Source: a virus (taxonomy: Duplodnaviria > Caudoviricetes). From it: DNA of 64,000 bases. A model generated the notes under the pieces. The model worked only from the letters and a program-made list of their open reading frames with translations. It did no database searches and was not told where the DNA came from. Made by a program: the position numbers and the translations under genes. This document shows, piece after piece, positions 1-16,112 of this stretch (position 1 is the first letter of the stretch; every line of letters begins with the position of its first letter). The stretch lies in IMG/VR virus record IMGVR_UViG_3300013383_000027, positions 1-64,000 of that record. One strand, given 5' to 3'.

Positions 1-77
1 AAATATTATTAAAAAGTTTATTTAAAATAAAAATTTTAGTATTATATAAATATAAATAATTAAAGAATTTAATTAAT

Positions 78-193
78 TTAAATATAATCCGAAAATACGT
101 TTTTCTTTCTTAAAATTCCAATCGCACCATTTATGTCAGCATTCAGAATTTTGTTGCATGAAGATTCTGTGCGGTTCTCGTTTTTCCAATTTC
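78..193 (-). pseudogene. tnpB: 3' remnant of an IS200/IS605/IS607-type TnpB nuclease
   Basis: Translation ends KILNADINGAIGILRKKNVFSD, matching the TnpB C-terminal RuvC motif. There is no upstream TnpB body because a different gene occupies 194-712. Downstream 1-77 is extremely AT-rich. Confidence 0.6.
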
Positions 194-712
194 TCAGTGT
201 CCACAGAGTTTGGCGATAGCCTCTATTATCGACGCTCCATATGGGGAAAACCCAAGAATCGCCATTGCAATGTACGGATACGGCATTGTAAGGACTTTCT
301 TTATCGTCCCATTCCAAGACTGGTCCTTCTCTTCGAATTCCGGCTGGTTGTTGTCAATGCCAAGTGAGTGTTTGTACTCGTCAAGAATGCGCTAATGCTC
401 CTCCTTCTCTTCTTGGTTCTCGACATACTTCATAGCCTTGCAGGTGAGACACTGCGACCGGTTGGCTTTTTGAACGGTAACATTTATTTTCGCGTCAACC
501 TCAGTGACGAATGTACTTTGTGTGACCGCCAGAAGCTGTATGGCTTCCGTCATCTTCTAGATTTTCTCCTCTGGCGAAATTCCGTTGGTCGCCGTAGTCG
601 TCAGGTTGATGAGCTTAATATAAAGTTTCTTGTAGTTGTCGCTCATGTTCGAATTTGCAATGCGCGTCTTCGCAAACTCGGCGTCATCAATCATGTCTTT
701 TGTAGTTGACAT
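194..712 (-). CDS. Hypothetical protein (172 aa) with C-terminal hydrophobic segment; holin-like candidate; 2 in-frame TAG
   Basis: Absent from the ORF track. Manual translation: MSTTKDMIDDAEFAK...SPEEKI*KMTEAIQLL...EEH*RILDEY...VLTMPYPYIAMAILGFSPYGASIIEAIAKLCGH-TGA. Confidence 0.6.
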
Positions 713-736
713 CGGAGGTTCCGTTCCTTGGGTTGT

Positions 737-1579
737 TTATCTGTTTTCAGCGCCGTAGATGGACCCAACGAAGGTGTTCGGCGAGTTGAGCGTCAACGAT
801 CCCTCAACATTATAGTACTTGTTCGAGTTTGTTCCCACTACGAATCCGGTCGAGATGCGGAGCTTCAGACCGCGCTTCACCGGGAAGGTGAAACCGACAT
901 ACGAACAGAAGTTGTTTCCGATGAACGGCTGAAGCTGAAGAATCCTCCACTCGTTCGAGTCTCCGGTCGTTATGTTTCCCTCAAGCGAAACCCACCTCGT
1001 TGCGTTGTTCTTCCTTTTGTTTTCCGGTTCGTCAAGCCACCCAAAGCAGGTAAAAACACCGGATGTCTGACAGGTGATTTCATTTGAAACGCGTCCTTGC
1101 ACAATCATTCTGTATGCCGTGTTGTACTCTTTTGATGTTGTGAGCTTCCCGTCGGTTACCGCATCCGCACCAATAAACAGCGGGGAGTTTTCCTCGGTGA
1201 ATATCTTCATCGCCTATACGTTGACGACATTGTTAAGATCTGATTCACCCGTGGTTGTCGTTGGGCATGTGAGCTTGTCCTTGAACACCTTCTCTCCCTG
1301 GAATGCGTTTCCGTCCTTGCAGTCAAGCTTGTATATCCTCTACACGGTATTACTCAGGTCTCGGAAGTCGGAGAGTTCCTACATGCTGCCGGATTCCTTT
1401 AGGAGGTCCTTCATGTTCCGGTTCACGGTGCTCTTGAGATCACCTACGCTGACGTGCTTGCTCATGTACTTCCTCACGCCGCTTGCGTCGACATCGACCG
1501 GCACGGAGACCTCAATAAACGAACTGTCGACCGGATTTTTCGCGGTCGGCAATTGGGAAACTGACCTGACAAGACCCAT
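737..1579 (-). CDS. Tail-fibre-associated virion protein (280 aa); 3 in-frame TAG
   Basis: Track ORFs 1379-1579 and 737-1210 join in frame through TAGs (...NNVVNV*AMKIFTEE). It ends in TAA and is preceded by a GTAAATA motif. The N-terminus resembles those of other fibre proteins in the window. Confidence 0.65.
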
Positions 1580-1606
1580 TTATACCTGACTTTCCTTGAT
1601 TTAAGA

Positions 1607-1665
1607 TATTTACATAAAAAATAACGAGAAAGATGCCAGGTCTTTAGCCTGGCATAGAGTTCACA
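1607..1665 (-). repeat. Hairpin repeat cassette copy 1 plus GTAAATA late-promoter motif
   Basis: Plus strand: tatttac...acgagaaag ATGCCAGG tctttag CCTGGCAT agagttcac. It lies 12 nt after the TAA of the GT32 gene. Confidence 0.9.
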
Positions 1666-1677
1666 TTTTTGAAGGTC

Positions 1678-2403
1678 TTATCGAAGCAATTTGTCGTATT
1701 TGCAAAATGGAATTGATGACACATTGGACGACGCCCAGCTAAACGAGTTGAAATGGTCGATGTAGAAGTCAGGAGAAAGTGACCATTTCCCATATCTGAG
1801 CGAACAACGCCTAAACTTGATTCTGTTTCCGACAAATCTCAGGTTCGAGTGCCAGTTCGGAGTCGTCTGCAGTAGTTCAACAACATCTTCACGTCTTCTA
1901 AGCGGAAATTCCCAAAAACCAGTTGGTGATGACGGCTCTGAGCCCATGAAATAGTTGTCCGGGAATATATTGTTGGCTTCATAGTGTCTCGTGACGCAGA
2001 ATCTTCCAGATGAAAGAAGTTCATCATCAAACGGCTTCACAGGAAATGTGTCGCAGTCTAGATATATTCCACCATACTCATTCATGAGTTCCATTCGAAC
2101 AATGTCGGAAAGGATTTGGATGAATCTCAGGTTCTTTCCATAAACATTCTTCTGTTTCCAGATATACTCTCCGTAAAAGTCGTTCCTTCCGAGAAGCGAG
2201 TCGATGCATCTGCGTATCTGGACGTCATATCTTGAATTAAAATCGAAATCTGCCGAACCAATTCTTTCGATTTCCCTAACTGAACGGAAAACCCTGACTA
2301 TCTCGAAATCAGGGTTCACCTCCTTGAAGTTTCCTATCGAGAACTCGACATAATCTGGCATCGAGTTCCCAAACCAGACGAAAAACAACCTCTTCGGAAT
2401 CAT
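1678..2403 (-). CDS. Glycosyltransferase, GT32/DXD sugar-binding family
   Basis: MIPKRLFFVWFG start and DIVRMELMNEYGGIYLDCD motif typical of GT32. Confidence 0.85.
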   Translation of the reverse strand: MIPKRLFFVWFGNSMPDYVEFSIGNFKEVNPDFEIVRVFRSVREIERIGSADFDFNSRYDVQIRRCIDSLLGRNDFYGEYIWKQKNVYGKNLRFIQILSDIVRMELMNEYGGIYLDCDTFPVKPFDDELLSSGRFCVTRHYEANNIFPDNYFMGSEPSSPTGFWEFPLRRREDVVELLQTTPNWHSNLRFVGNRIKFRRCSLRYGKWSLSPDFYIDHFNSFSWASSNVSSIPFCKYDKLLR

Positions 2404-3170
2404 TGCGCCTTTGAACGGAACTTCTCGTTGAGTTCCTTCAGAGGTTCTATCAGTTTTCCAAGCGGCGTATCGTGATATTCGTCAGAAAGGGCGTTCACGT
2501 CCTTCGGGAAGCACTTTCCTCCGTATCCGAAGCATCCGTCAGGACCTGGAACCTGCGTATGGGTCTTGTTTATGTAACCGGAAAGGAGGATTCCGTCCCT
2601 AACATTCCCGAAATCGAGACTATCGCGTTCGCATATGTCATTTATCGCGTTGAAATACGTGACCTTGAGCGCCCCGAAGACGTTATGTGCGTACTTTGCA
2701 AGCGAAGCCTCCATACTCGACATGCAAATGTGCTCCTTTCCGGGGAAAATCCGCTCAAGAAGCCCGATGTTGCCAGTAAAAACCATTTTCTGGCGACGAA
2801 AATCCTCAATATAAGTCCTTTCCGTGAGAAATTCCGGCATATGATGGACTTTTTCGTTGATTTCCTTCAGTTTTTTGAGATTTTTTGGAAGAGTCGTCGT
2901 CCGAATCCAGATGTCCTTGCCTTTTGGAATCATTCTTATGATGTCCTCAAGCACGCCGATGTCCTGCTTGCCGTTTTCAAGAGTTGGAACATGAATCTGA
3001 ATAAAAAATGCATCAATTTCCTCGTTTTCGTATACATTTTCATCATAACCCTTTGCCGGATCCGAAATGTGGAGGATGACATTCGGGTTGTTTTCCTCCA
3101 GCCAGACCTTTAGTGCCGTCCCGATGAAACCACATCCAACCAAACCAACATCAATTTTTTCTGATTTCAT
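2400..3170 (-). CDS. UDP-glucose/GDP-mannose dehydrogenase family protein (short form, C-terminal domain absent)
   Basis: VGLVGCGFIG Rossmann motif, PEFLTE, AKYAHNVFGALKVTYFN and GFGYGGKCFPKD catalytic motif. Confidence 0.9.
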   Translation of the reverse strand: MKSEKIDVGLVGCGFIGTALKVWLEENNPNVILHISDPAKGYDENVYENEEIDAFFIQIHVPTLENGKQDIGVLEDIIRMIPKGKDIWIRTTTLPKNLKKLKEINEKVHHMPEFLTERTYIEDFRRQKMVFTGNIGLLERIFPGKEHICMSSMEASLAKYAHNVFGALKVTYFNAINDICERDSLDFGNVRDGILLSGYINKTHTQVPGPDGCFGYGGKCFPKDVNALSDEYHDTPLGKLIEPLKELNEKFRSKAQ

Positions 3171-4080
3171 TGATAACCTCCAATATTTTGTCGTTTTCTG
3201 TAAGATTTAAACAGTTAATGTCATTTTTGCAGTCGTTGTAGCGGACCTGAAGCCCAATGTCGACATAGTTCAGGTCTATCATGACCTCCTTGTCATGAAG
3301 AAAACACTCCGTGACAAGCCTGGGGCTGCAGTCGAATCGCCTTTTAACCGGTGTATAAATGTACTTGTCGAACTTGTCGAAAAGATTCTCAACCGGAGCC
3401 TCCACCTGCTCTATGTCGTCAAGGTTATCATATTCGGGAAGAAGCTTCGGAACGATGAGAATGCTCCTGCTGCACCCCGAATTGCGGTGGTATTCCTGTA
3501 TGACCTCCGGAGTCACCTTTCTACACGCAAACGTAACATAAAACATTCCCGTGTTGTCATATGTCCTGTTTGGCTTCCTGTAGTACACAAACGGAAGCTT
3601 TTTCACATAATCGAATGTCCTGTAGTAATTATTCGGCTTATAGATTCGGTAGTCCTTCAAGTACACCATGTTCCTGTAGATCGGGGACCTTGTGTTGATT
3701 GCCTCGTCCTTCTCTCCGCACATGAATCCTATCAGGTGTTTTGACATCAAGAGAATGCCATACAATTCAAGCTGGTGGATATTCCCGTCACAGAGCAATA
3801 CGACGGTATCCTTCCCGAACACATACACCTTCTCCCGCTTGAACTCATCAGGTGTTATGTAGGTTATGTCATCTACTATATCATCAAACGATATGTTGTA
3901 TTTCGACTCGAATGCAACCCTTATCTTTTCCCTGCTCATTCCCCCGAAGAAGATTATTCCAGCCTTCATGTAATTCCTAAGGAACAGGTAATAGTCAAAA
4001 CACTCGAACAGATGTCCGGTTATCTCGTCGATTGGAGAATATGTCAGAATTATGTCGTATGACGACTCTATCTTTCGCAT
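3151..4080 (-). CDS. Hypothetical protein (309 aa), possibly a glycosyltransferase-like fold
   Basis: Long ORF overlapping both neighbours in the operon. No diagnostic motif recognised. Confidence 0.6.
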   Translation of the reverse strand: MRKIESSYDIILTYSPIDEITGHLFECFDYYLFLRNYMKAGIIFFGGMSREKIRVAFESKYNISFDDIVDDITYITPDEFKREKVYVFGKDTVVLLCDGNIHQLELYGILLMSKHLIGFMCGEKDEAINTRSPIYRNMVYLKDYRIYKPNNYYRTFDYVKKLPFVYYRKPNRTYDNTGMFYVTFACRKVTPEVIQEYHRNSGCSRSILIVPKLLPEYDNLDDIEQVEAPVENLFDKFDKYIYTPVKRRFDCSPRLVTECFLHDKEVMIDLNYVDIGLQVRYNDCKNDINCLNLTENDKILEVINEIRKN

Positions 4081-4991
4081 CAGATTATCGAGTTCCTGTT
4101 GTTCCTATTGCAGTATTCTACGACTCTCATGTTGCAATAGCGGCAGCATTCGCATTTTCCGGAAAGTATGTCGTCGTAATTTCCGTCCCAACCCGTCAGG
4201 TTGTTTTCCTCCATGTGGACATAGCATGGATAGATATCACCAAACGCGTCAATCTGCAAGGAATAATCTTTTATGCTTTGACAATAAATATCTGTCTTCC
4301 CCATTTTTCTGTAGAAATCAACCAGGGAATTTATTTTTTTGTATGTATCATATATATCTTTTGGCGGAAGAAAATCTAAATACTCAAAATTGTTTTTGTA
4401 ATCATCTTGTGGAGATGGATAACAAGTGTCAAGGTATTCAATCTTATGAAATCCAACTAACATGTTTTTAAATTTGTTTGATTTTATATCATCGTTATTG
4501 TATGAAAACCTAATGCATTTCGCACAATCTATATTTCTTATTCTACGTATGCATGATGCATGTCTAAGAATACGTTCTAGATTCGTATTTACCCTGTAAT
4601 GTTCGTGATTTTTCTGGTTGCTTCCACACAATGTAAACCAGATCTCGTCATTATCATCCATTAAATCGCCAAGTCTATTCCAATATTCATCCTCATGCAA
4701 ATCTCCATTCGTGCATATTTTTATCTTTAAACCACGTTTCTTTATCTCATTTACGATCTCATGAAATTCTGGGTGAGTTGTCGGCTCAGATAATTGACCA
4801 ATCAAATAAACTGTCTTCAAATTTGGAAAAGAAAAAATCTGTTTCAGGACTTTTTCTCCGTTTCTATAGAACGGTTTCTTGTATTTTTCACTGAAAGATA
4901 TTTTGTTTCTATAGCAAAGCGGACATTTCGCATTGCATATTGTCGTCAAATCGAGCTCCACCAACTGTACTTCATTGTATTTCAAATGCAT
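4080..4991 (-). CDS. Radical SAM protein with SPASM/twitch-type C-terminus
   Basis: CNAKCPLC (CxxxCxxC), IGQLSEPTTHP, TNG, C-terminal CQS...IDAFGDIYPC...CECCRYC. Confidence 0.9.
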   Translation of the reverse strand: MHLKYNEVQLVELDLTTICNAKCPLCYRNKISFSEKYKKPFYRNGEKVLKQIFSFPNLKTVYLIGQLSEPTTHPEFHEIVNEIKKRGLKIKICTNGDLHEDEYWNRLGDLMDDNDEIWFTLCGSNQKNHEHYRVNTNLERILRHASCIRRIRNIDCAKCIRFSYNNDDIKSNKFKNMLVGFHKIEYLDTCYPSPQDDYKNNFEYLDFLPPKDIYDTYKKINSLVDFYRKMGKTDIYCQSIKDYSLQIDAFGDIYPCYVHMEENNLTGWDGNYDDILSGKCECCRYCNMRVVEYCNRNNRNSII

Positions 4992-5599
4992 TGTACCCTC
5001 TCAAAATCTTTATCGTGTATCATACGTTTTATTGATTCTTTTGTCATTCTATCTGAAAATTTCGATATGATTTCATGTTTCCTTTTTTCAGACAATATCG
5101 GTCCTGTCTGTTCATGGAAGAAAGATGATGGAATCAAATCAAACAAAATATCCCTGTTTATTTCAAGAAAATTTCCAAGACGGCATATATTGTCATCTGT
5201 GACAACAATGACATATCTAACATTATACTCGTCGTGTTTTTCAATTTGTTCTTTTTCAAACAAATCTTGCGAGCAATGATATAATATCTCAAAAGTTTTT
5301 TCACACAATCTAGGATACTTGAAAAACATCCCGTTCGTTTCTATGTATATTTTACATTCCTTTTCTTGCAAGTTCTTAAAATATTCTTCAAGTATATCTT
5401 CCTGTACAAGTCCTGGTTCTCCACCAAATATGGTAACGTTTGATTTTTCTGGAATTGTTTTTAATCTTGAAATTATATTTTCTGCATCACAATTGGCATT
5501 CATGTCCACTTTATTTCTTACTGCACAATAAGGACAATTCCAATTGCATTTTGTTGTTATCAAGATTGAATAATCATTTTCTACATTAAGAATTGGCAT
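4982..5599 (-). CDS. Radical SAM protein (short, 205 aa)
   Basis: CNWNCPYC, FGGEPGL, IETNG. Confidence 0.9.
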   Translation of the reverse strand: MPILNVENDYSILITTKCNWNCPYCAVRNKVDMNANCDAENIISRLKTIPEKSNVTIFGGEPGLVQEDILEEYFKNLQEKECKIYIETNGMFFKYPRLCEKTFEILYHCSQDLFEKEQIEKHDEYNVRYVIVVTDDNICRLGNFLEINRDILFDLIPSSFFHEQTGPILSEKRKHEIISKFSDRMTKESIKRMIHDKDFERVQCI

Positions 5600-6374
5600 T
5601 TAAAAATCTCTTTGAATTTTTTAAGTCTAACATGAAGTCAGAAATGGTCTTGTGTTTATCCTCCAGATAAAAATCAGAAAGATGCAACTTTATGTTTGTT
5701 TCGCTCATTCTGTCTTTTCTTTCTTTGTAGCGTTCTATCTTTCTGCATAGACCAATATCGTGAAAATGAAAACATTTTATTTTATTTGTTTGTATACATT
5801 TGCCACATATTTCTGGTTTTGATTCATAACATCCGGGAAGATAATTCGTCTCTTTTACTAGATTTGGATTAAAAACCAACATTTTTTGTTTCTTTCCAAA
5901 TCTATCATATTTTTTATCTATATCATTGTAGTATTTCCATTCATCTATATAAAAAGTATCAACTATATTGTGCATCAATCTACCATCATATTTTGGAAAA
6001 ACATATGAAATCAAATTTAGGAATTCTGGTGTTATTGTCGCGATGTTTTCATTCTTCATTTCTCTTAAAATCAGTTCTGGTTCATCTATAAACAAACATT
6101 CGTCCATGTCTGAAACTATAACAAAATCCGTTTTACCAACAACATTTTTCCAACACATGTTTTTTATTCTCAAGAGTTCCATGTCATCGAGAATACCATT
6201 TGTTTTCCACACCTTGACAGTAACGAAAGGTATTTTTTTGAGAAATTCATATGAACCATCGTTTGATTCGTTGTCATAAACCGTAACATGCGCATTCATA
6301 TGCTTCCAATAATCGACAACAAACGGAAGTATTTGGATTTCATTATAGCAAAACGTGAACCATTCAACGATCAT
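5586..6374 (-). CDS. Glycosyltransferase (GT2/GT92-like)
   Basis: TFCYNEIQILPF, VYDNESNDGS and FVIVSDMDE (DXD) motifs. Confidence 0.8.
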   Translation of the reverse strand: MIVEWFTFCYNEIQILPFVVDYWKHMNAHVTVYDNESNDGSYEFLKKIPFVTVKVWKTNGILDDMELLRIKNMCWKNVVGKTDFVIVSDMDECLFIDEPELILREMKNENIATITPEFLNLISYVFPKYDGRLMHNIVDTFYIDEWKYYNDIDKKYDRFGKKQKMLVFNPNLVKETNYLPGCYESKPEICGKCIQTNKIKCFHFHDIGLCRKIERYKERKDRMSETNIKLHLSDFYLEDKHKTISDFMLDLKNSKRFLNANS

Positions 6375-7257
6375 GAATTTCTCCGTTTCCTATTGTTACC
6401 CCGAAATTTCCATGTCTACAAAATGGACATTTGCAGACAACAGTTGTGTATTTTTCAACATCAAATCCATCTTTTATGTTATATAAGGGTTTGTCTCCAT
6501 AGTAAAATTCATTTTGACATGGATATACATTCCCATTTACGTGAATATACAATGTATCAACACCGGCGGTACATTCATTTCCGGAATAATCATCCATATA
6601 CACAGCCGAAAAATCATCAAAGATAGATTTATATATGTCCTTGTGCCCAATATGCTTTTTTACGTCAACAAAACCATTTTTAATGAGAATTGAAGAAAAA
6701 TTACGAATATCATCATCTGAATATTGAAATACACCACTTGGTTTATATAAAAGCCACGGAACAATAACGTTTTTATACTTTTCTTTCAAAGTATAAATTA
6801 CATTTCCCCATCTATCTGAATTTCCAAACTCATACATCATGGCTATTTCAATTATGTTGGCTTGGTTTATTCCAGTTAGACCGTTCAAGAATGATACGAA
6901 TGTTGTGTCGTTTGTTTCAGTGTGCCACGATACTGAAAACTTCACATTTTTTGAAAGCAATTCAGCATAATCACATCTAGCGACAGAAAGATTTGTATAC
7001 ATATCCACACTACATACATTTTTTATATTGAATGATCTTGTTACAAGTTCTGAAACCTTTGGATGTAGTGATGGTTCTCCACCTATTAAAGACAATTTTA
7101 TATTTCGTCCGGTTTTCTCTGAAATTTGCGCAAGGAAATTCAAGAGAATGTCAATATCAATAAAATTCCCACTTCTTGGCTGTCTGTTGTAGCAATACGA
7201 ACATTTAAAATTACACGCGTCAGAAATATAAACAAGAATTGTTAACTCAGTATTCAA
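6364..7257 (-). CDS. Radical SAM/twitch protein, paralog of 8320-9279
   Basis: CNFKCSYC, IGGEPSLHP, CTAGVDTLYIHVNGNVYPC...CKCPFC. Confidence 0.9.
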   Translation of the reverse strand: MNTELTILVYISDACNFKCSYCYNRQPRSGNFIDIDILLNFLAQISEKTGRNIKLSLIGGEPSLHPKVSELVTRSFNIKNVCSVDMYTNLSVARCDYAELLSKNVKFSVSWHTETNDTTFVSFLNGLTGINQANIIEIAMMYEFGNSDRWGNVIYTLKEKYKNVIVPWLLYKPSGVFQYSDDDIRNFSSILIKNGFVDVKKHIGHKDIYKSIFDDFSAVYMDDYSGNECTAGVDTLYIHVNGNVYPCQNEFYYGDKPLYNIKDGFDVEKYTTVVCKCPFCRHGNFGVTIGNGEIHDR

Positions 7258-8323
7258 TATATTCGTCCTCTCTTATGAGATCAAGTGTCGAACAATGTAT
7301 ACCGCCAGCAAATATCTCACCATTATCCAATTCAACCTCAATGATATCGAATCCATTCTGTTCAAGTGCCTTTTTAACACCATATGCTTTTTTGTTCACA
7401 AGTACGGTATGCTCATCCAGACTTAAAACATTTATATCCATTCCACGACTTGATGCAAGACGTATATCAATATCTGTCATTCCTCTAACATCAAGTTGTT
7501 CTGTTAGATCCTCTGGGATAATGAAGTTCCATTTTTTGAATTTTTCTGGCAACATGTCTCTTACACAAGCGAATTTAGGATTCAACAGGAATGTCCCAGG
7601 TTTAAGACACACAAGTTCACCATCAATATGCGAATCTGCGCATTTGACAACGTGGAATTTCGATTCTGGGAACAACGACTTGACCCATTTGTATCCAAGA
7701 TATTGATTTTGTGTGGCTACATTTACAATAACATCCTTTCCTATTGTCAAAAAATTTGGAGCATCAATCGACATCTCATATCTCGCATTCGCGTTCGTGA
7801 AATCTCTGTCTTCCTTCCAGTCGACCAAATCGTACGTTTCCTTAATCAAATGGGTGTTCGGAGCCTTTATCCACTTACCGCCATTCCCGTTATCAAACGC
7901 CCTCTGGAATATTCTGTACATCTGCAGGTTCTCAAAAACCCTGTTCCTCAGACATATCGGTGTCTCCACAATCGTGTCGTTGTAGACCAGTGTGAGATCC
8001 CTGACATTGTTGGCCGAACTCATCTCGGTGTCATATGTCGGGGTCTTTATCTTGTGAACTCCAATTACCCTGTCCGGCCGGAAAACGGTTACACCAAGAC
8101 TTTCAAGGACACCTGCAAGCGCGTCAAGCTGTTCCACCCTTCTCTGCAATATATTCTCGGTTATTGAATACAACTCATGTCGGCTGTTGTAGAGTCCCTC
8201 GGGGAGAAGGTTCTCCCTGAAGAAATTCCTGAACGTAAAATCGATCAGACGACGGCTTATTTCAAGCTCACGCCCGACAATAACCTCCCGCAACTTCCCA
8301 AAAGTCGTATTACAGTGAATCAT
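7247..8323 (-). CDS. Amidinotransferase (glycine / inosamine-phosphate amidinotransferase family)
   Basis: FGKLREVIVGR, NVRDLTLVYNDTIVETP, DAPNFLTIGKD, SHIDGELV, C-terminal GGIHCSTLDL with the catalytic Cys. Confidence 0.9.
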   Translation of the reverse strand: MIHCNTTFGKLREVIVGRELEISRRLIDFTFRNFFRENLLPEGLYNSRHELYSITENILQRRVEQLDALAGVLESLGVTVFRPDRVIGVHKIKTPTYDTEMSSANNVRDLTLVYNDTIVETPICLRNRVFENLQMYRIFQRAFDNGNGGKWIKAPNTHLIKETYDLVDWKEDRDFTNANARYEMSIDAPNFLTIGKDVIVNVATQNQYLGYKWVKSLFPESKFHVVKCADSHIDGELVCLKPGTFLLNPKFACVRDMLPEKFKKWNFIIPEDLTEQLDVRGMTDIDIRLASSRGMDINVLSLDEHTVLVNKKAYGVKKALEQNGFDIIEVELDNGEIFAGGIHCSTLDLIREDEYIEY

Positions 8324-9279
8324 TTCTTCACACCCTTCAGTATCTTCTCCTTGCGGACGTCGAAGTCACACGAGCAGTAATCAACAGAACATATGCACGG
8401 CTTGAACAGTTCCCTCCTGTACTCTCCATTCGTCTCCATAAGGTTGCAAATTGGCTTCCTTCTATGCTCATAATAACTCTGGCAATTGTATACGTTTCCA
8501 TCGGCATGCACATACACGTAGTCAAGCCCAGCATTACACTTCCAAAGATGGAAATTGACAAGGGGGTTAAGGTACATGTCATTGAAAGAAACCTGCTTCT
8601 CCGTTCCATCACTGTACCTCAGAGTGAAGAAATCCCTGACATACTTGAGTTCTCTCGTGAACCTGTGGTAGAGATCGAGCTGTTCCTGCGTATAGTTATA
8701 CGGCTGTCCATTCTTATCCGTGAGCAGGCTTATCTCAATCCATTTCTTGTAGCGCGGAACGAGAAGCTCATATGTCCTTACCGAGTTCTTCCAGTTGTCC
8801 TTCTCAAACATTATGCGGACTTCGATCAAATCCTTCTCGAAATACATCATCGGTATCGCAAGCATCTTCGAGATGTATTTGTTGTTCGCCGGATCGCACT
8901 TCGTTCCGTGCCACGACGCGGCAATCTTGATGTTCCGCACAAGAAGCCATTTCGCATATTCGAGGTCAAACGTGAAATTTGTTATTATCTCAACCTATAT
9001 ATCGTCGAGGGTGTTTAAGTGTTCAAGGAATCTTTTCAAATCCGGGTGGAGTGTCGGCTCACCTCCTATAAGCGAAACGTTGAGCCTTCTGCCCGTTTTC
9101 CGTTTCATGTCTTCGACAAACCTAAACATAAGTTCGAGATTGGCAAGACCACTTGTTCTCGGAAAGAAGTTATAGCAGTATGGGCAACTGAAGTTGCACC
9201 TGTCTGCGACAAACAACAAAACGTTTATCACAGACACGTCCTGCTTGACGTATTGTTCAATCGGGTATATGTCGTTCAT
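8320..9279 (-). CDS. Radical SAM/twitch protein; 1 in-frame TAG at 8995
   Basis: Track ORFs 8995-9279 (CNFSCPYC, IGGEPTLHP) and 8320-8940 (CNAGLDYVYVHADGNVYNC) join in frame through LDDI*VEIITNF. The joined gene is colinear with paralog 6364-7257. Confidence 0.9.
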
Positions 9280-10115
9280 TTAATCCTTTTGAAAAATTTC
9301 AAACGCTCTGCGACCGGATCGTACTCGTCCGGAAACTCGCCATTCCTGTATATGTGCTCATGTAGAAACGAAATCGTATCAACCTCGTCATCTGCATACA
9401 GGTCGACGGAAGGATACCCCTCGCCGAACTGGTAGTTCTGGACTGGGCGCATGTGAAACTCGCCGTTGAGGAACATTGTGTCGATTACATATTCCTCCAG
9501 CGAGTACCACCCACTCTCCTTGTAGAGTCTCTTCCACCCGTCGCTTTCAAGTATCGACTTGTCCATGCAAAGCGAAAAATATCGTTCATAGAATCCGTTG
9601 TTGAGCCCCGATACGATGAAATTCGTGTCAAACGGAAGATGCCCGTTTAGGGTGGTCCTCTGTCCTTTTGCGGATCTCTCGTCGTACTGTCCGATTACGA
9701 TTTCGTCGTCAAACGGGAGGAGTGACGCGTCAAGTGGTCTCAAAACCTGCATGTCAAGATCAATCTTTATCGAAACCCTGTTCCTCATCTCCGGAAATTG
9801 GCTGAAATAATATCCACAGAGCGGTTCATTGAGAAACCCAATCTTGAAGTCATCGGCACATTCTTGTGGGTCATCAATGTACCTGACTCCAAGATTGCTC
9901 AGCCTTGAAACCGTTTCAGCCTTTACAAACGTCTTGTTGAGGTGTACACAGCAGATGTCAATGTCTTTTAGGATTCCTGCGTTTTTCCGCCACGAACCAA
10001 AACAACGTACAGCCTCCTCCTCGAAAAACCGCGAAACGCTCTTCCCGCCAACAGTTACTTTCTTGTTGGCGTCTATCGGGGAAATAAGCACGAAATCTTC
10101 TGGTTTCAATTCCAT
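9276..10115 (-). CDS. Putative glycosyltransferase-like protein (GT-A, DXD)
   Basis: IKIDLDM DXD-like motif and FDTNFIV segment, plus operon context. Confidence 0.55.
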   Translation of the reverse strand: MELKPEDFVLISPIDANKKVTVGGKSVSRFFEEEAVRCFGSWRKNAGILKDIDICCVHLNKTFVKAETVSRLSNLGVRYIDDPQECADDFKIGFLNEPLCGYYFSQFPEMRNRVSIKIDLDMQVLRPLDASLLPFDDEIVIGQYDERSAKGQRTTLNGHLPFDTNFIVSGLNNGFYERYFSLCMDKSILESDGWKRLYKESGWYSLEEYVIDTMFLNGEFHMRPVQNYQFGEGYPSVDLYADDEVDTISFLHEHIYRNGEFPDEYDPVAERLKFFKRIK

Positions 10116-10762
10116 ACCGGCAGGAGGCTGATATCCGGATATTCGTCATAACAGATCTCCCTGAATGGTGGAAGCAGTTCGTCCTGGTTCAGTTTGCATA
10201 TTCCAAGAGCGGCTCGCTCAGGCTCCATGTAGCAGTGGTATCCCATGATAATGTCCTTTTTTGTCATGACAGATTCCTTGATGAACGGAATCCTAGGGTT
10301 CCTGCCGTCGTGGCGCATCCTCCTGAGGAGTTCGAGATATCTCTCGCTATTGAATAGAATGGCTCCTCCGCGTCCAAGCGAAAGCCTCTTCTTCTGCTGA
10401 AATGAAACACACACAAGGAAATCCTCGCAGATGAAGTCGTTTAACATCATGTTCTCGTTGAAACCAACAGCGGCATCAAAAACACCGGTTCCCTTGCCAA
10501 CCTCATACGAGATGTGCCATTCAACAAGCTCAAATGATATGTTCCACCCGTTGTTCTTCAGGGTCATCGGAACGCTGAGATACGTGTTCTTTGGAATCAC
10601 AAGCGGCTCATCCTTGTTTATCTCACCGAGTCGTCTCTTAGCCTCAAGTGAAAGAAGAATTGCATTTGTGCAACAGTCAACGCATACTGCATATTCGAAC
10701 TGCGTATACCTCACCAACTTCCTTTCGAATTCCTCAACTAGATCAAAATTGTTGTCAAACAC
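10106..10762 (-). CDS. DegT/DnrJ/EryC1/StrS-family PLP aminotransferase (short form)
   Basis: AVCVDCCTNAILLSL, TYLSVP, VFDAA, SFQQKKRLSLGRGGAI (PLP lysine motif), RHDGR. Probable start is GTG at 10762 after GAGAGGGGG. The track's TTG at 10930 would overlap the epimerase by 175 nt. Confidence 0.85.
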   Translation of the reverse strand: MFDNNFDLVEEFERKLVRYTQFEYAVCVDCCTNAILLSLEAKRRLGEINKDEPLVIPKNTYLSVPMTLKNNGWNISFELVEWHISYEVGKGTGVFDAAVGFNENMMLNDFICEDFLVCVSFQQKKRLSLGRGGAILFNSERYLELLRRMRHDGRNPRIPFIKESVMTKKDIIMGYHCYMEPERAALGICKLNQDELLPPFREICYDEYPDISLLPVWN

Positions 10763-11681
10763 CGACAAACCCCCTCTCAAGTTCGGAAACCCATTTTCCG
10801 ACAAGTTTCTTGACGTGGATGGCGGAATCGCGATCCGGCCGATATATACACCTTGTCCAGACGAAACAATCTTGATTTCGCTCAACGATTTTGACACGTT
10901 CTCCCGTAATCTTCTCAACCTCTTTTCCAATCAATGTGGCAAGAACACACATTGACACGCTTCCGTTTCTGTCAACGATATTTGCTGTCTTGTCATGTGT
11001 ACATAGAATCTCGTCGACCCCCCTCTTGCTCGCATAGTCTATGTCGGTCATCGTGCGGAGCGTGTCCTTCGAATACCATATGCTCTTCTCGACAAACGCA
11101 TCCCTGAACATCTCGAACACGACGCCACGTTTCTGCCCGGCACCAGAAATGTTGAACGGTCTTAATATCTTAAGATGGGAAATCGCCCCAAAATTACGAA
11201 GCGTAGAAAACATCGTCTCATCAGCAAGCTTCTCGATTGCGTACAGGGTGCGAGGGTTCTTTGTGTCTATTGTCAGGTCAACCGTTTTGGCATTGCAGCG
11301 CCCTTCACAATTCCCGTACACTTCAGATGAGGAGTAATATGTAAAGTCTACGGGCTTCTTCCCCGCATAGAAACGTTTCGTAAGAGCTTGCGCCACGTTG
11401 AACGAAATCAAGTGGTTCCGCTCCGCATGTACAATCGGGGATGCCTGATTTCCCTTATCGGCATCGAAGAGTTTCCTGCCAACATTGGCCGCAAGAAGAA
11501 CAACATTCGTATATCTTCCGATTATCTTTGACAGCGAATCGATATTGTTATTGTCCGTCAGGTCGAGATCGAAAATGTCAATCGACCTGTATGCAACATT
11601 GCGTCTCTTCAGCTCGCGACAAAGACCCGAACCGATAAAACCATGACCCCCAATGAGAAGAACGCGTGTTTTCTTTTCCAT
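10755..11681 (-). CDS. NAD-dependent epimerase/dehydratase (extended SDR)
   Basis: GGHGFIGS, YSSSEVYG, YAIEK (YxxxK), LRPFNISG. Confidence 0.9.
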   Translation of the reverse strand: MEKKTRVLLIGGHGFIGSGLCRELKRRNVAYRSIDIFDLDLTDNNNIDSLSKIIGRYTNVVLLAANVGRKLFDADKGNQASPIVHAERNHLISFNVAQALTKRFYAGKKPVDFTYYSSSEVYGNCEGRCNAKTVDLTIDTKNPRTLYAIEKLADETMFSTLRNFGAISHLKILRPFNISGAGQKRGVVFEMFRDAFVEKSIWYSKDTLRTMTDIDYASKRGVDEILCTHDKTANIVDRNGSVSMCVLATLIGKEVEKITGERVKIVERNQDCFVWTRCIYRPDRDSAIHVKKLVGKWVSELERGFVGV

Positions 11682-11712
11682 ACTCCATAGTATACCGTTT
11701 TCGAGAAAAAAA

Positions 11713-12801
11713 TCAAGGTCTTTTTGGATATTTTCTCAAATACAAAAGTTCTGTCTCATTACCGATAAATTCCATTGGGTTCTTGACTATTTTTCCGGGT
11801 TCTGGAACGGCATATTTCAGAATTGAATGATCACACGTCTTCTCTACACCATCACATATGAGATAGTATCGGCATCTCAAACATTCCTCACCTTTCTCAT
11901 AGAACTGGTTTCTCGTCCTTGTGACACTTTCAAGTGACCTGCTGCCATACGGTCCGAACGTCTTTGGATCGGTTCCCGAGTCTACGAGATCAAGAAGCGT
12001 CGTCCCGTCCAGCTCCCTGTTCCAGTCGAACCAGTCGTACATATGCTGGAGATGTCCAACAATGTGTCGTTCATATCCCTTCATGTCACAAAACGGAAAA
12101 TACCTTATGTAGACAAGGCAATTCGGAAGCTTTTCCCGTATTACACCGATATTCCTCTTCAATATGGGGCGAAGCTTTCCATAATCTATATACCGTGACA
12201 TTTCTCCAGCCTGTTCAAACGTATTAACCGGGAGGAAGTTGATGACGGACGGCCCGAACTTCACAAGATCGTCAACTATCAGATCAAGACCGCCCATGTT
12301 GAATGTCGCAACAACGGTGTTGAACCTCAGCAACTTTCCGTGTGTTTTGGCTTTCTCGACCGTCTTATTCACCTTGTCAAATGTATCGCCAAGCGGAAAC
12401 ATCGCCCTGTCCATGTTCATGTCCCTGCGACTTATGTGATAGCTGATTAAAACCTCGTCTATTATATCCCACACATCACTCCTCCACAACCCGCCATTGG
12501 TTATCACGGCTATCCTGGAAGACATGTTCCGTGATTTTATGTATTCGCAGACGTGGCGGAGCTCTTGATATTCAGAAGGTTCCCCTCCTGTTATCTCAAA
12601 ATCCCGTATTCCGTAGCCAAGACAGAAATCGATTTGTTTTCTGATGTAGTCGAGTGGAAACATCTTTTCATTGCATCTGTTCACATAGTAGCAGAATCCG
12701 CACTTCTGGTGGCATTGGAACCCGACGTATATCTGCGAACGCCTTGGCTGCACAAATCCCGGAGTGTTTTTCCTTATTACTCCTTCAAGGTTGATGTTCA
12801 C
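11713..12801 (-). CDS. Radical SAM protein
   Basis: CHQKCGFC, ITGGEPS, ITNG, C-terminal CLRCRYYLICDG. Confidence 0.9.
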   Translation of the reverse strand: MNINLEGVIRKNTPGFVQPRRSQIYVGFQCHQKCGFCYYVNRCNEKMFPLDYIRKQIDFCLGYGIRDFEITGGEPSEYQELRHVCEYIKSRNMSSRIAVITNGGLWRSDVWDIIDEVLISYHISRRDMNMDRAMFPLGDTFDKVNKTVEKAKTHGKLLRFNTVVATFNMGGLDLIVDDLVKFGPSVINFLPVNTFEQAGEMSRYIDYGKLRPILKRNIGVIREKLPNCLVYIRYFPFCDMKGYERHIVGHLQHMYDWFDWNRELDGTTLLDLVDSGTDPKTFGPYGSRSLESVTRTRNQFYEKGEECLRCRYYLICDGVEKTCDHSILKYAVPEPGKIVKNPMEFIGNETELLYLRKYPKRP

Positions 12802-13430
12802 TTCAAAAGATCCTCAATTTCAATTCGTCTCGAATTCCTTCCGGCAAAGATATACCTGAACCCAAACTCCTTCAGTATTCTGTCTGAAATGAAGAAGTCA
12901 TATGCATACGGATATACGAAAATGTCGGTATCAAACCCAAGTTCACCAAGCCTCCCGACACCCGCAGAAACATCCTTCCGGAAATCACCAGCAATATCGA
13001 TTTTCCCCTTTCCGAGGCTCTCGTCCAATTCAAGGTTCAGGTGCGTCCCTCCGTGGAACGCAAGAAACACGTTTTCACCTTTAAGAAGTTCTTTGACCTC
13101 CTGAACGCTCATGAACCCATTCAAAGCCGTCATGTCTCCCGAATGTATGCGGTCGTGAAGTTCCGAAGAAACAGAAACGAAGTCTGGGCTGCACGAATGG
13201 TCGCGGACGAGAAACGAGGACAACCCAAGCACAACGCCGATTCCACGGCTCAGAAGTTTCTTGCCGTGTTCCTTAAGAAACAAATATTGCGAATATAGGC
13301 AATCGTCCAAGAAGAGAAGGTCGCCGTTATTGAGGCGACCCATCGGGTTTCCCACCGTGTGTGGTTGGTGCATGACGACCCTCCGTCCGGATGACTTCAG
13401 AACCAAACGGAAATCCTTCTTTCCCGTCAT
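12798..13430 (-). CDS. Polysaccharide deacetylase-like (NodB-fold) protein
   Basis: LFLDDCLYSQ, AFHGGTHLNL and FVYPY resemble NodB metal-binding motifs. Confidence 0.6.
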   Translation of the reverse strand: MTGKKDFRLVLKSSGRRVVMHQPHTVGNPMGRLNNGDLLFLDDCLYSQYLFLKEHGKKLLSRGIGVVLGLSSFLVRDHSCSPDFVSVSSELHDRIHSGDMTALNGFMSVQEVKELLKGENVFLAFHGGTHLNLELDESLGKGKIDIAGDFRKDVSAGVGRLGELGFDTDIFVYPYAYDFFISDRILKEFGFRYIFAGRNSRRIEIEDLLK

Positions 13431-14122
13431 GTCGTGAAGTCCTGTAGCTTCTTGAGGTATTCGTCCATTGCGAAATCAACCTCCTCGACCGTCTTTGACG
13501 CGAGAACTTTCTGACGTGTACCATCCATCAAATCGTATACGTACTTGACCCTTGCGATACGGTCATATGCGTTCAGATACTTCTCGAGCGTCGACAGGTT
13601 TTCCTTTGCTTCCGTATAATTTCGCATCATGGTCGCATGTTTCTGTTCCTGGTCGAACGTTGGGTTTTCTGGAAGTGGATCCGGCTCTGGGTTGTCCTGG
13701 GACTTTTCGATGATCTCGAAGTACTTGTCCTCGCGGTTGGAGTCGGTGATGAAATATCCTGCATTCAGGAGTTTTATGTAATTGTTCATGTATTCCATGA
13801 CGTCGATAACGGACACGCCGATTATCATCTGCTGCATAGCAGTTGAGATGTCGTTAACAGCAACCCGAATTCTCGTCGTCAATTCATCAGATTGGATTTC
13901 GATTATGTCGGAAAGTTGAGCCTCCGGAAACTGCATCATCTTCGGAAAGCCGACGGCAACACCCTTCGCAAGAAGTTCCTTGACCTTCGCTATCGTCAGA
14001 AGGCTCGCTTTCAGAACCTTCGAGCCTGGTTCGGGGTTCATTGCATTCGAATACGACGTTCCGACGACCCTCCAGTGGTCGCCGTCGTCCCTCACGAGAA
14101 GCGTCTCATAGTCCATTTTCAA
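13427..14122 (-). CDS. Hypothetical protein (231 aa), helical, directly downstream of the Cys-rich protein
   Basis: Clean ORF with an ATGA overlap to the next gene. No family recognised. Confidence 0.7.
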   Translation of the reverse strand: MKMDYETLLVRDDGDHWRVVGTSYSNAMNPEPGSKVLKASLLTIAKVKELLAKGVAVGFPKMMQFPEAQLSDIIEIQSDELTTRIRVAVNDISTAMQQMIIGVSVIDVMEYMNNYIKLLNAGYFITDSNREDKYFEIIEKSQDNPEPDPLPENPTFDQEQKHATMMRNYTEAKENLSTLEKYLNAYDRIARVKYVYDLMDGTRQKVLASKTVEEVDFAMDEYLKKLQDFTT

Positions 14123-14140
14123 TTCCTCCGTTTTGAAAAG

Positions 14141-14707
14141 TCAGTAGTTGTTGCAGTATCCGTAGCAGTTGCACTTGTAGTATGCTGTGCAATCGGAGTA
14201 GCATATGCAGTCGCCCATCGCGAGCGAAACCTCTGTCTGCATGTTCGCAATCGACTCTGCAAGGGTCTTGTTTCCCTTGTTGAAATCCGATGTCTCATCG
14301 TCAATGCGGTGCATCTCGTTGACAATCTCCTCAAGTTTCGCAACCGGGTTTCCGACGACGACATCACCTTTTGCGGTAGGGTTCAAGTCACCATTCGATC
14401 TAAGTTTCGTCTCCCTCTCCATGTTCCCGTTGAAGCTGTCGGAAAGCGGCCACCTGTGGAGATTCCTACGAGCAATCTCCTGCTCGATTGCTGACTTGAG
14501 GGTGTTTATGTTTCCAGTCTCTATTATCTCGTTATCAACCGGCTTGTCGAAATCGTATGAATCAACCCCCTTGTCCCTGTGACCTGTGCAGAACCCGTAC
14601 TGGACCTTTCTCCCCTTGCTCGGCCAGCCGTCCGTGTCCGTCGAACAAACGCCGTTCTTCGGAAAACCAATCTTTGACTTGCCTCTTTCTGGATTACACC
14701 GTGCCAT
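14141..14707 (-). CDS. Protein with Cys-rich C-terminus (CxC-x3-C-x5-CxC-x3-C); candidate radical SAM substrate
   Basis: Ends GDCICYSDCTAYYKCNCYGYCNNY-TGA and lies 12 nt downstream of a SPASM radical SAM gene. Confidence 0.75.
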   Translation of the reverse strand: MARCNPERGKSKIGFPKNGVCSTDTDGWPSKGRKVQYGFCTGHRDKGVDSYDFDKPVDNEIIETGNINTLKSAIEQEIARRNLHRWPLSDSFNGNMERETKLRSNGDLNPTAKGDVVVGNPVAKLEEIVNEMHRIDDETSDFNKGNKTLAESIANMQTEVSLAMGDCICYSDCTAYYKCNCYGYCNNY

Positions 14708-14719
14708 TCGAAAACTCCT

Positions 14720-15814
14720 TCAGCTTATAAAATATTTACGGTTGGACAGGGCAAGAAAAAGAGCCTTCGTCACCTTTCCGAAGTGCTTCATGAACCTGCA
14801 TTTTGAGAGATCCTTTCCGACTGCCGTGTTCCACCTGTCCATCCCGTCATTCCTCCCAAGACATTTCACATGACAAGTGACGCAGTATGCCGCACCACAG
14901 CCAATACAACCATCAATCGGTCCTGACGAGTCGAGTTGGTTGTTCTCGTACACCTTCACGAGGTCATCGACATCTTCTATCGTGCCAAGAACGAACCTTT
15001 CGTTGTTTTCAGCATACGGTCCACCATGACAGCAGTATATCATGCCGTCAGTGTGGAGGTGTAGGTTGTTGTCCATCCTGCATCTTGCTCGTCCATCCCT
15101 CTGGAACCACCCCATCAAAAACCTTCCATGTTCCATGTAGAAGCGACATTCCCTCTTCGCAAGTTCAAATGTAGCCTTTTTCCACTCGTCAAACATTGAG
15201 TCATCACTCATTGTTGTGTCGAGTGTCGGAACATACTGTACGAAATCACCAAACTCTTCATACAATTTCCTATAGGATTCCCACATTTCCGGAAGTTTGG
15301 GAATCATGTCATACGTCAGCGTAGGCTTGAAGTTTATCTCGATGCCGTTCTCAAGAAGGAGCCTGGCGGTCTCGAATATGAGCGAACTGTTGTCTCCGCG
15401 CTTCTCCGTGTGCTGCGGTTCGCCGTCGTATGAGAGCTGTATGTGAAGACGACCGCCCTTCAGGCTGTCGATATAGTCCGAATTCACAAGCCTCCTGAAG
15501 TTCTCGACGAGCGTTCCGTTCGTGTAGCAATGGTAATTGACGAAATCATACTTGTAAGTTTCCCTGATGAGATGGTCGAGAAACTGGAAATTCAGGAATG
15601 GTTCTCCTCCCCAGAAGGTAAGTTCAAGGGAATGCAGCTTTTCCGGATTCCAGTTCTCGCAGAGATTCCTGATGACACGGATTTCATCGCCCTCATTCCT
15701 CGGATTCTTCACACAGATCTTGTCAAGACCCTCCATGCAGTACGAGCAGTGGCAGTTGCATCCGTCCGTAACCGTCACTTCAAGTGAAATTGACTGTTTC
15801 CTGTCAAATTTCAC
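14720..15814 (-). CDS. Radical SAM/SPASM peptide-maturase-like enzyme
   Basis: CNCHCSYC, FWGGEPFL, YTNGT, QLSYDG, SPASM Cys set RCRMD...YCCHG...CIGCGAAYCVTCHVKC...KC. Confidence 0.9.
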   Translation of the reverse strand: MKFDRKQSISLEVTVTDGCNCHCSYCMEGLDKICVKNPRNEGDEIRVIRNLCENWNPEKLHSLELTFWGGEPFLNFQFLDHLIRETYKYDFVNYHCYTNGTLVENFRRLVNSDYIDSLKGGRLHIQLSYDGEPQHTEKRGDNSSLIFETARLLLENGIEINFKPTLTYDMIPKLPEMWESYRKLYEEFGDFVQYVPTLDTTMSDDSMFDEWKKATFELAKRECRFYMEHGRFLMGWFQRDGRARCRMDNNLHLHTDGMIYCCHGGPYAENNERFVLGTIEDVDDLVKVYENNQLDSSGPIDGCIGCGAAYCVTCHVKCLGRNDGMDRWNTAVGKDLSKCRFMKHFGKVTKALFLALSNRKYFIS

Positions 15815-16020: not shown

Positions 16021-16027
16021 AACAATA

Positions 16028-16056
16028 ATTTTAGATTTTTCTTACAAAAAAGTCAA
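16028..16056 (-). promoter_or_regulatory. Sigma70-type promoter TTGACT-N17-TAAAAT driving the radical SAM/sugar operon
   Basis: Minus strand reads TTGACT TTTTTGTAAGAAAAATC TAAAAT TATTGTT ATG. Confidence 0.8.
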
Positions 16057-16068
16057 GATATTTTTATC

Positions 16069-16093: not shown

Positions 16094-16112
16094 ACGGTCT
16101 TTGGTCTTAAAA

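Follow-up and report, generated by a model that had tools for sequence, protein, structure and literature searches.

Clusters of radical S-adenosylmethionine (SAM) genes around an amidinotransferase have been in the phage literature since 2010, when Timms et al. reported five radical SAM genes and a putative glycine amidinotransferase in the Campylobacter phages CP220 and CPt10, as an interchangeable module to which no role was assigned and for which a metabolic boost was proposed (PMC2853527). In 2025, homologues in the cyanophage S-SCSM2R were termed 'antibiotic synthesis genes', and the reason for their carriage was called unclear (PMC12801897). These two descriptions of gene content are the only literature on the function of the module that we found, and no paper identifies its product. 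Here we consider a related operon in IMGVR_UViG_3300013383_000027, an 83-kb fragment of a T4-like gut phage (32% complete by CheckV), the first 64 kb of which form the window, that is, the whole stretch of DNA analysed. An earlier note on this DNA had placed an amino- or guanidino-sugar pathway at positions 1678-13430. The reading that we tentatively favour, at a little less than even confidence, is that the operon is a cytoplasmic maturation island, in which a fibre-tip protein and its maturases are joined by an amino/guanidino-sugar kit whose sugars would be placed on the cysteine (Cys)-ladder tip of that protein. To the published descriptions we add that the island is common to T4-like phages of gut, marine and Campylobacter origin and to predatory bacteria, that its proteins are soluble, and that it is centred on a conserved fibre-type protein with a fixed mature end, the amidinotransferase part being optional.

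CP220 and CPt10 are likewise T4-like, and in both an amidinotransferase gene is surrounded by five radical SAM genes (CP220 gp086 is 44% identical to the enzyme encoded here, and that of CPt10 31%). They also carry homologous GT-A-like genes, and their clusters, as here, lie among baseplate and tail-fibre genes. Unlike this operon, however, they have no DegT-like gene and no short-chain dehydrogenase/reductase (SDR) gene, and near their amidinotransferase no Cys ladder is recognisable. A second CP220 cluster (locus L115, 11829-17450) follows the baseplate hub gene and holds gp015, a QueE-like radical SAM gene, gp019 and the SPASM-type radical SAM gene gp023. The first of these, directly after the hub gene, is the homologue of the partner protein of the Cys-ladder protein described below; gp019 is a short UDP-glucose-dehydrogenase-like protein, a form that is kept here and in other relatives, and gp023 is 27% identical to the first SPASM paralogue of the island.

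The S-SCSM2R block (L003, 229-236 kb) resembles this operon in that ORF305, ORF306 and ORF309 include a short DegT protein (ORF305, 37% identical), a radical SAM enzyme and an amidinotransferase (25%), with several glycosyltransferases, five in all, in the same block. This phage has an aerobic host, and alongside a single radical SAM gene the block contains several 2-oxoglutarate (2OG)-Fe(II) oxygenases, which may replace radical SAM enzymes there. The S-SCSM2R stretch examined showed no Cys-ladder protein. The published virion proteome of this phage lists a second amidinotransferase, ORF266.

The Cys-ladder protein and its putative maturase

The candidate target is a 188-aa protein whose tail reads DCICYSDC..C.C...C..Y and ends at the stop codon. 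Across its family (F14; family labels are those of Table 1) the tail follows the pattern DCICxSDC..C.C...C..Y, and the homologues all have four (Cys-x-Cys-x-x-x) repeats, an invariant ladder that closes with Asn-Tyr (...CxCNY). A stop codon directly follows the Tyr in this phage, in its nearest relative (L004), in both Halobacteriovorax genomes and in L104 and L108. In the other homologues the Tyr is followed by Ser-Asp-x-Arg-Leu-Lys (SDxRLK) and then by a Peptidase_S74 domain, and in 18 of 19 sequences it is the last residue before either the stop codon or the S74 cleavage site. S74 domains are chaperones that help tail spikes and fibres to trimerise and that cleave themselves off at a conserved Ser. 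Cleavage at this Ser would therefore give both forms of the gene the same mature end to within one residue.

The viral share of the F14 cluster in the ESM Atlas is 99%. Searches of Pfam, NCBIfam and PHROGs identified only the S74 domain in the Cys-ladder protein and no family for F10 to F13. A pattern scan of bacterial genomes for the Cys-ladder protein was empty, which reflects a limit of the method, as loci L082-L084 encode this protein. A tail-fibre-like gene lies directly upstream of the island here (16352-17191) and in four relatives, and an S74 fibre gene stands beside it at each predator-bacterium locus.

The radical SAM/SPASM enzyme F7 adjoins the Cys-ladder protein in all relatives. 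Its match to model NF047865 spans the full length at 44 bits, and an L016 paralogue scores 85 bits; the cut-off is 340, and the maturase thus falls short of an equivalog-level PapB match. None of the operon's radical SAM enzymes reached a curated NCBIfam cut-off. The SPASM enzymes of the island nevertheless score best against the PapB ranthipeptide maturases and the cross-linking enzyme QhpD, and PapB-type enzymes are known to form Cys-to-Asn/Asp thioethers (PMC9389541). As in the PapB/PapA, NxxcB/NxxcA and QhpD/QhpC pairs, a SPASM enzyme, with PapB as its best model, stands beside a Cys-rich substrate with Asn/Asp-x-x-Cys motifs (PMC9389541), and the Cys-ladder protein and all its homologues are encoded next to such a maturase. 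The arrangement differs from the ranthipeptides in that the maturase would act on the tip of a fibre-type protein of 150 aa, which has an S74 chaperone, rather than on a leader-core peptide, in that a large sugar-tailoring kit is joined to it, and in that the maturase scores far below the curated cut-offs.

A Tyr-terminated ladder beside SPASM enzymes also calls to mind a mycofactocin-like small molecule, whose precursor, the C-terminal Tyr/Cys ladder of the 188-aa protein, would be rebuilt by radical SAM enzymes and then transaminated, guanidinylated and glycosylated. The mycofactocin system includes MftA, with Val-Tyr at its end, the SPASM radical SAM enzyme MftC and the glycosyltransferase MftF. 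The island keeps a free C-terminal Tyr by two routes, a stop codon or S74 self-cleavage, it has adjacent SPASM enzymes and glycosyltransferases, and an F7 paralogue matches the mycofactocin maturase model at 3e-10. However, the PapB/QhpD-type models score far above that model, no peptidase was found that would release a small product, and a trimeric structural protein is what the S74 domain and the almost entirely viral family suggest. The 4,6-dehydratase, PIG-L and SDR proteins of the island, moreover, would be left unexplained by such a molecule, and we consider this explanation improbable.

Two further proteins were noted in connection with the ladder and with S74 domains. One is a 356-aa protein, encoded at L021 (7415-8485) and also at L022, L023 and L025, between a SPASM radical SAM gene and the partner gene and 1.5 kb from the amidinotransferase; it has about 26 C-x-C-x-C-N-Y/H repeats in tandem and shares an N-terminal Cys/His motif with F14. 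In Peredibacter, the gene L083:17331-18401, beside the island, combines a type IV pilin N-terminal methylation motif with a C-terminal Peptidase_S74 domain; S74 matches number 22 in the Peredibacter genome and six in each of the two Halobacteriovorax genomes.

Amidinotransferase, sugar-tailoring and radical SAM enzymes

The amidinotransferase of the operon is, by homology and catalytic triad, a true enzyme of the AGAT/StrB1 type, with a pentein fold. It matches human AGAT (1.4e-32) and StrB1 (3.3e-30), as well as SxtG and HsvA, in the Protein Data Bank (PDB), and is colinear with StrB1 across residues 8-351 of 358. Its GGIHC, SHID and IDA motifs align with Cys407, His303 and Asp254 of AGAT, and the corresponding Asp187, His232 and Cys344 are invariant across 21 homologues.

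The DegT-type pyridoxal phosphate (PLP) enzyme reaches 56.6 bits against PF01041 (cut-off 19.8); its open reading frame (ORF) spans 10106-10930, and its start is probably a GTG at 10762. It belongs to a short family of about 200-218 aa, whose alignment shows the PLP residues Lys181 and Asp152 to be invariant. The full-length DegT proteins of L083 and L021 have a C-terminal domain and some 30 internal residues that this family does not, and the protein encoded here accordingly does not have the full two-domain DegT/DnrJ/EryC1/StrS architecture of about 370 aa. The nucleotide-sugar-dehydrogenase-like protein is also short: it has GGKCFPKD, the motif of the catalytic Cys, and the central domain, just after which it stops, at residue 256, without the C-terminal UDP-binding domain. 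The SDR family was found at nine of the 11 loci analysed. A deacetylase-like protein, as the earlier note had called it, has no direct Pfam match; the assignment holds through its clustering with Peredibacter L083:15434-15979, a Polysacc_deac_1 protein (4.2e-7), and by eye it contains DD and H...H motifs.

The remaining enzyme families of the earlier note were recovered as well by Pfam, PDB and fold matches, and all lie in one operon. Both clear glycosyltransferases match known families (PF04488 and GT2), and the five radical SAM genes proposed between 1678 and 13430 are all there. The two possible glycosyltransferases are confirmed as such by the fold of their predicted structures. For the first, the AlphaFold2 model (pLDDT 84.6, pTM 0.88) gave Foldseek matches to tll1591, BshA, PimA, MshA and SPY, as expected for a GT-B enzyme. 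For the second (pLDDT 91.4), Foldseek returned the UGGT catalytic domain (2.5e-9), glycogenin and blood-group glycosyltransferases; profile searches of the PDB and Pfam with this GT-A-like family were empty, and it was assigned by fold search alone.

Among the radical SAM enzymes, the F1 profile matches viperins (1e-18), SkfB (5e-17) and the cytosylglucuronate decarboxylase BlsE (3e-15) in the PDB. The substrates of viperins and BlsE are nucleotides or nucleoside sugars. The F0b profile is nearest to QueE, MoaA and YydG, and relatives have one to four tandem copies of this small enzyme. F0a, usually present as three tandem copies in relatives, conserves C237, C256, C283 and C286 and otherwise gives weak matches. 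The sequences do not decide between a sugar and a peptide as the substrate of these enzymes.

We considered how far this set of enzymes resembles known pathways to amino and guanidino sugars. The earlier note had drawn an analogy to aminoglycosides and specifically to streptidine, and part of it stands: the StrB1/StsC pair and AGAT (PDB 1bwd, 1jdw) share with the operon full-length homology, the Cys-His-Asp triad and the pairing of the amidinotransferase with a PLP enzyme of the DegT/StsC family. The PLP enzyme is, however, truncated here, and identity to StrB1 and AGAT is low. Searches of the operon ORFs other than 15811-16020 against Pfam, NCBIfam and PHROGs found no cyclitol-forming enzyme, kinase or phosphatase, and membership of an aminoglycoside pathway was rejected because the operon has no cyclitol enzymes.

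Two known routes to an amine can be recognised. The standard way to make a 4-amino-4,6-dideoxy sugar from UDP-GlcNAc uses a 4,6-dehydratase and then an aminotransferase (Pse/Pgl), and a GT4 glycosyltransferase followed by a PIG-L deacetylase is the standard route to a free-amine glucosamine conjugate (BshA-BshB, MshA-MshB, BtrM-BtrD). Like PseB/PglF with PseC/PglE, relatives of the operon have a dehydratase beside the aminotransferase: at L012 and L018 a Polysacc_synt_2 UDP-GlcNAc 4,6-dehydratase (3.9e-71) directly precedes DegT, GT-A and the amidinotransferase. PIG-L deacetylases occur at eight of 11 loci, and the GT-B enzyme encoded here resembles BshA, MshA and PimA by fold, at about 10% sequence identity. 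Unlike either type of system, this operon itself has no PIG-L gene, no dehydratase, and no acceptor pathway for a thiol, inositol or undecaprenyl. The guanidino-sugar idea of the earlier note is best backed by these relatives, since they show both the dehydratase-aminotransferase and the GT4-PIG-L logic, and the amine from either route would readily serve the amidinotransferase as acceptor. As judged from sequence, a sugar-tailoring pathway with an amidino step appears to be the most economical reading of the enzymes.

We infer the substrates, the order of the steps and the target from the enzyme families, their catalytic residues, the operon and its synteny. The island would have two parts. 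The first would comprise the fibre-type protein, the thioether-type SPASM enzyme, the partner protein and the GT-B enzyme; the second would comprise the SDR, short DegT, NodB-type deacetylase and short dehydrogenase-like proteins, the amidinotransferase, the GT-A enzymes and further radical SAM enzymes. A sugar derived from UDP-HexNAc would be oxidised or dehydrated, and transamination, de-N-acetylation or both would expose an amine on it, which the amidinotransferase would then convert to a guanidino group with arginine as donor. The glycosyltransferases would place such sugars on a phage protein, most plausibly on the Cys-ladder tip, which the SPASM enzyme would also cross-link, and other radical SAM enzymes might tailor the sugar or the peptide without oxygen.

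The absence of membrane proteins bears on whether the product might instead leave the cytoplasm. In a 19-residue hydropathy scan of the operon proteins no segment reached transmembrane strength, the highest value (1.55) lying at the Rossmann N-terminus of the dehydrogenase-like protein; all operon proteins are soluble. Nor do the operon proteins include any Pfam family for a membrane initiating transferase, a flippase or transporter, or a polymerase, which argues against an undecaprenyl-linked host-surface glycan. If exported, the product could be an antibiotic or metabolite of the aminoglycoside kind, or a host surface polysaccharide modified against superinfection. The combination of amidinotransferase, aminotransferase and GT4-like enzyme, with PIG-L in relatives, is as found in aminoglycoside pathways, the cyanophage homologues have been named for antibiotic synthesis (PMC12801897), and a PAP2 phosphatase is encoded downstream of the CP220 cluster. 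However, genes for a cyclitol synthase, a kinase, an exporter or resistance are all missing from the operon, as are an initiating phosphoglycosyltransferase and any membrane segment, and we regard export as distinctly improbable. Defence evasion and superinfection exclusion, the purposes suggested in the earlier note, are conjectural.

Synteny of the island and separability of its modules

Metagenomes contain hundreds of homologues of the amidinotransferase, in some cases on contigs as long as 452 kb; among GenBank phages such homologues are found in the CP220/CPt10 group and S-SCSM2R. We compared 78 viral and 19 bacterial loci gathered from the homologue alignment, and refer to the 21 whose amidinotransferase is at least 42% identical as close. 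A GT-A-like gene accompanies the amidinotransferase at 21 of 21 close loci; nearly all have paralogues of the radical SAM genes 4080-4991 and 4982-5599, and most have the GT-B, viperin-like radical SAM and short DegT genes. The same kit occurs in about 20 IMG/VR phage contigs, on the chromosomes of two Halobacteriovorax and one Peredibacter, and in one Sulfurovum metagenome-assembled genome. Co-occurrence across relatives had been set beforehand as a check on the pathway, and it came out in its favour, the kit recurring syntenically in many unrelated contigs.

Clustering of ORFs at eleven loci, four of them extended upstream, gave a recurrent gene order. It starts with a fibre protein like 16352-17191, a short dehydrogenase, two SPASM radical SAM enzymes, the Cys-ladder protein and its partner, continues with one or two GT-B-like proteins, the viperin-like radical SAM enzyme and three to nine further radical SAM enzymes, and ends with (in some) the 4,6-dehydratase, followed by short DegT, GT-A, the amidinotransferase, two proteins of no known family, SDR, PIG-L and a NodB-like protein. 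The core order shared by phages and the three predator chromosomes is F7, F14, F11, F13, GT-B, F1, radical SAM enzymes, DegT, GT-A, amidinotransferase, SDR, PIG-L and NodB, the GT-B family (F5) being kept in the island core of relatives. The operon here is rearranged relative to this canonical order; it is partly low in GC and carries both modules. Four genes of 4080-7257 have a GC content of 0.30-0.35, compared with 0.42-0.51 in the remaining operon. Within them the radical SAM and glycosyltransferase pair at 5586-7257 is missing from the nearest relative, in which the amidinotransferase abuts the small radical SAM gene, and the GT2 gene of the pair has no homologue in related loci; the pair looks like a recent insertion.

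Starting from the Cys-ladder family, a search recovered ten viral loci, each of them the same island. Contigs L106 and L112 (52.8 kb and 146.5 kb) carry the ladder island with GT-B and many radical SAM genes and have no amidinotransferase, although one of them also has SDR, PIG-L and NodB; radical SAM genes accompany the Cys-ladder protein in contigs without an amidinotransferase as well. Because the modules can separate, the trio of amidinotransferase, DegT and GT-A may be regarded as an optional add-on to a commoner fibre-tip island.

This separability raises the question of whether two independent systems merely share a hypervariable locus, one stapling the fibre tip and the other an amino/guanidino-sugar pathway with a different destination for its glycan, such as other virion proteins or a host cytoplasmic molecule. 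The ladder-only contigs and, conversely, CP220 and CPt10, with radical SAM genes and an amidinotransferase and no ladder, would be expected from such an arrangement, as would the rearranged order and the low-GC two-gene insert seen here. It fits less well with the observation that GT-B, the viperin-like radical SAM enzyme, SDR, PIG-L and NodB stay with the Cys ladder when the amidinotransferase is absent. Moreover, about 13 of the 15 amidinotransferase-island lineages with enough flanking sequence carry both modules, and even in a diverged lineage, whose amidinotransferase is just 33% identical, a Cys-repeat protein comes with this enzyme: a SPASM radical SAM enzyme, the 356-aa protein, the partner, the amidinotransferase and a DegT protein occur together. 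On balance we judge two unconnected systems to be rather unlikely, if a serious contender. The preference of the earlier note for a protein target, in turn, gains support from the absence of membrane proteins, from the Cys-ladder protein with its SPASM maturase, and from the upstream tail-fibre gene.

Operon limits, expression and neighbouring genes

The genes listed in Table 1 form a single minus-strand operon that runs from 16020 to 1678, with successive genes overlapping by 1-20 nt or separated by at most 31 nt. The earlier note was thus right that 1678-13430 belongs to one operon, although this interval is only part of it: with the operon beginning at 16020, the limit at 13430 leaves out four genes (the partner, Cys-ladder, SPASM and 69-aa genes), a sixth radical SAM gene among them. 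In a scan of 1-19500, the promoter listed is the top minus-strand promoter hit and the upstream terminator is the top terminator hit. The first gene of the operon was tried as a relative of CP220 gp020 and ruled out, BLASTP giving no similarity.

Table 1. Positions of the operon genes and expression signals in the window, with the basis of each assignment.
Feature	Family	Positions	Strand	Basis or remark
Terminator hairpin		16074-16093	-	just before the operon promoter
Sigma-70-like promoter, TTGACT, 17 nt, TAAAAT		16028-16056	-	consensus match only
First operon gene, 69-aa acidic protein		15811-16020	-	4-nt overlap with next gene; no family found
Radical SAM/SPASM enzyme, PapB/ranthipeptide-maturase-like	F7	14720-15814	-	PF04055; NF047865, 1.2e-11
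188-aa Cys-ladder fibre-type protein, candidate target	F14	14141-14707	-	tail motif, homologues, position
231-aa partner protein without Cys	F11	13427-14122	-	always follows F14
NodB-type deacetylase-like protein	F9	12798-13430	-	clustering only; no direct Pfam match
Radical SAM enzyme near viperin/BlsE/MoaA	F1	11713-12801	-	family profile against PDB; phrog_27238, 9e-40
NAD-dependent SDR epimerase/dehydratase	F4	10755-11681	-	PF01370, 1.5e-19
Short DegT-type PLP enzyme	F6	10106-10762	-	PF01041; ORF open to 10930
GT-A fold glycosyltransferase, GT8/GT24-like, DLD motif	F3	9276-10115	-	predicted structure and Foldseek; phrog_23758
Radical SAM enzyme, C-terminal Cys cluster, one TAG as Gln		8320-9279	-	translation with TAG as Gln
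L-arginine amidinotransferase, AGAT/StrB1 type	F2	7247-8323	-	PDB profile matches
Radical SAM/SPASM enzyme, low-GC insert		6364-7257	-	PF04055, weak SPASM match; GC 0.32
GT2-family glycosyltransferase, low-GC insert		5586-6374	-	PF13704, 1.4e-8; GC 0.30
Small 205-aa radical SAM enzyme without auxiliary cluster	F0b	4982-5599	-	PF04055
Radical SAM enzyme, four conserved C-terminal Cys	F0a	4080-4991	-	PF04055; phrog_21308, 5e-34
GT-B fold glycosyltransferase, GT4-like	F5	3151-4080	-	predicted structure and Foldseek
Short nucleotide-sugar-dehydrogenase-like protein	F15	2400-3170	-	PF00984, 56.5 bits; TIGR03026, 4e-24
DXD glycosyltransferase, GT32-like, last operon gene		1678-2403	-	PF04488, 2.9e-10
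Terminator hairpin		1633-1655	-	closes the operon after 1678-2403

The operon contains one TAG codon in 14 kb, whereas the flanking late structural genes have one to four in-frame TAGs each. The single TAG, near 8995, divides 8320-9279, and the other 18 operon genes are free of it. Read as Gln, it joins the fragments 8995-9279 and 8320-8940 into one 319-aa radical SAM gene, and the 87%-identical homologue in the nearest relative has Gln at this position, an alignment that favours recoding of TAG as Gln. In the contig of L013 and L108 (IMGVR_UViG_3300013947_000036) the amidinotransferase gene has seven in-frame TAGs and the Cys-ladder gene has one; recoding would thus be common to other island carriers and would there reach the island genes themselves.

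A late-promoter-type core, GTAAATA, lies at 14733-14739, inside the end of the SPASM gene and 25 nt ahead of the start codon (ATG) of the Cys-ladder gene. This motif occurs 16 times in the window, compared with 5.6 expected, and 15 of the 16 are on the gene strand. The host-type promoter and the few TAGs, set against this core, leave the timing of expression ambiguous.

Early expression would suit hypermodification of DNA, with the amino or guanidino sugar attached to a base for restriction evasion. The host-type promoter and the near absence of TAG would permit it, the enzymes are all soluble, and the T4 DNA glucosyltransferases have a GT-B fold. Yet PF00303, the thymidylate-synthase-type hydroxymethylase family, is found neither in the 83-kb contig (32% complete) nor in a 184-kb relative (69%), and the sole CP220 modification named in one paper is 7-amido-7-deazaguanine, at 100%, with insertion attributed to DpdA3. 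A DNA target would furthermore leave unexplained the fibre protein, its S74 domain and the location of the island beside fibre genes in predatory bacteria, and we think it very improbable.

Several observations weigh against the maturation-island reading itself. The CP220/CPt10 cluster without a ladder has its reverse in two well-covered contigs. The host-type promoter and near-TAG-free operon, unlike the flanking late structural genes, are as compatible with an early function as with virion maturation, or more so. PIG-L and the 4,6-dehydratase are both missing from this stretch, and the DegT-like and dehydrogenase-like proteins are without the domains that usually bind the nucleotide part of a nucleotide sugar, so that their substrates may not be NDP-sugars. 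Finally, the many radical SAM enzymes could act on peptide instead of sugar.

A more specific form of the maturation-island reading, which we regard as possible but doubtful, is that the adhesive fibre tip of these phages and of Bdellovibrio-like predators, a Cys-x-Cys ladder with a free Tyr at its C-terminus, is stapled by SPASM enzymes and then capped with a cationic amino/guanidino glycan. If this fibre-tip reading is true, host recognition by many uncultured phages would rest on chemistry that is invisible in protein sequence, with a bearing on host-range prediction and on the engineering of phages in laboratory strains. It would also represent a new class of post-translational chemistry of the virion and would explain the 'radical SAM cluster' described in Campylobacter phages in 2010.

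A megablast search of stretch positions 1-20000 against GenBank phages gave no match. Farther along the window, the tail sheath gene occupies 58901-61567. Adjoining it on the opposite (+) strand, at 57066-58796, is a gene for a 576-aa HNH/homing endonuclease (phrog_3339, 1.5e-121).

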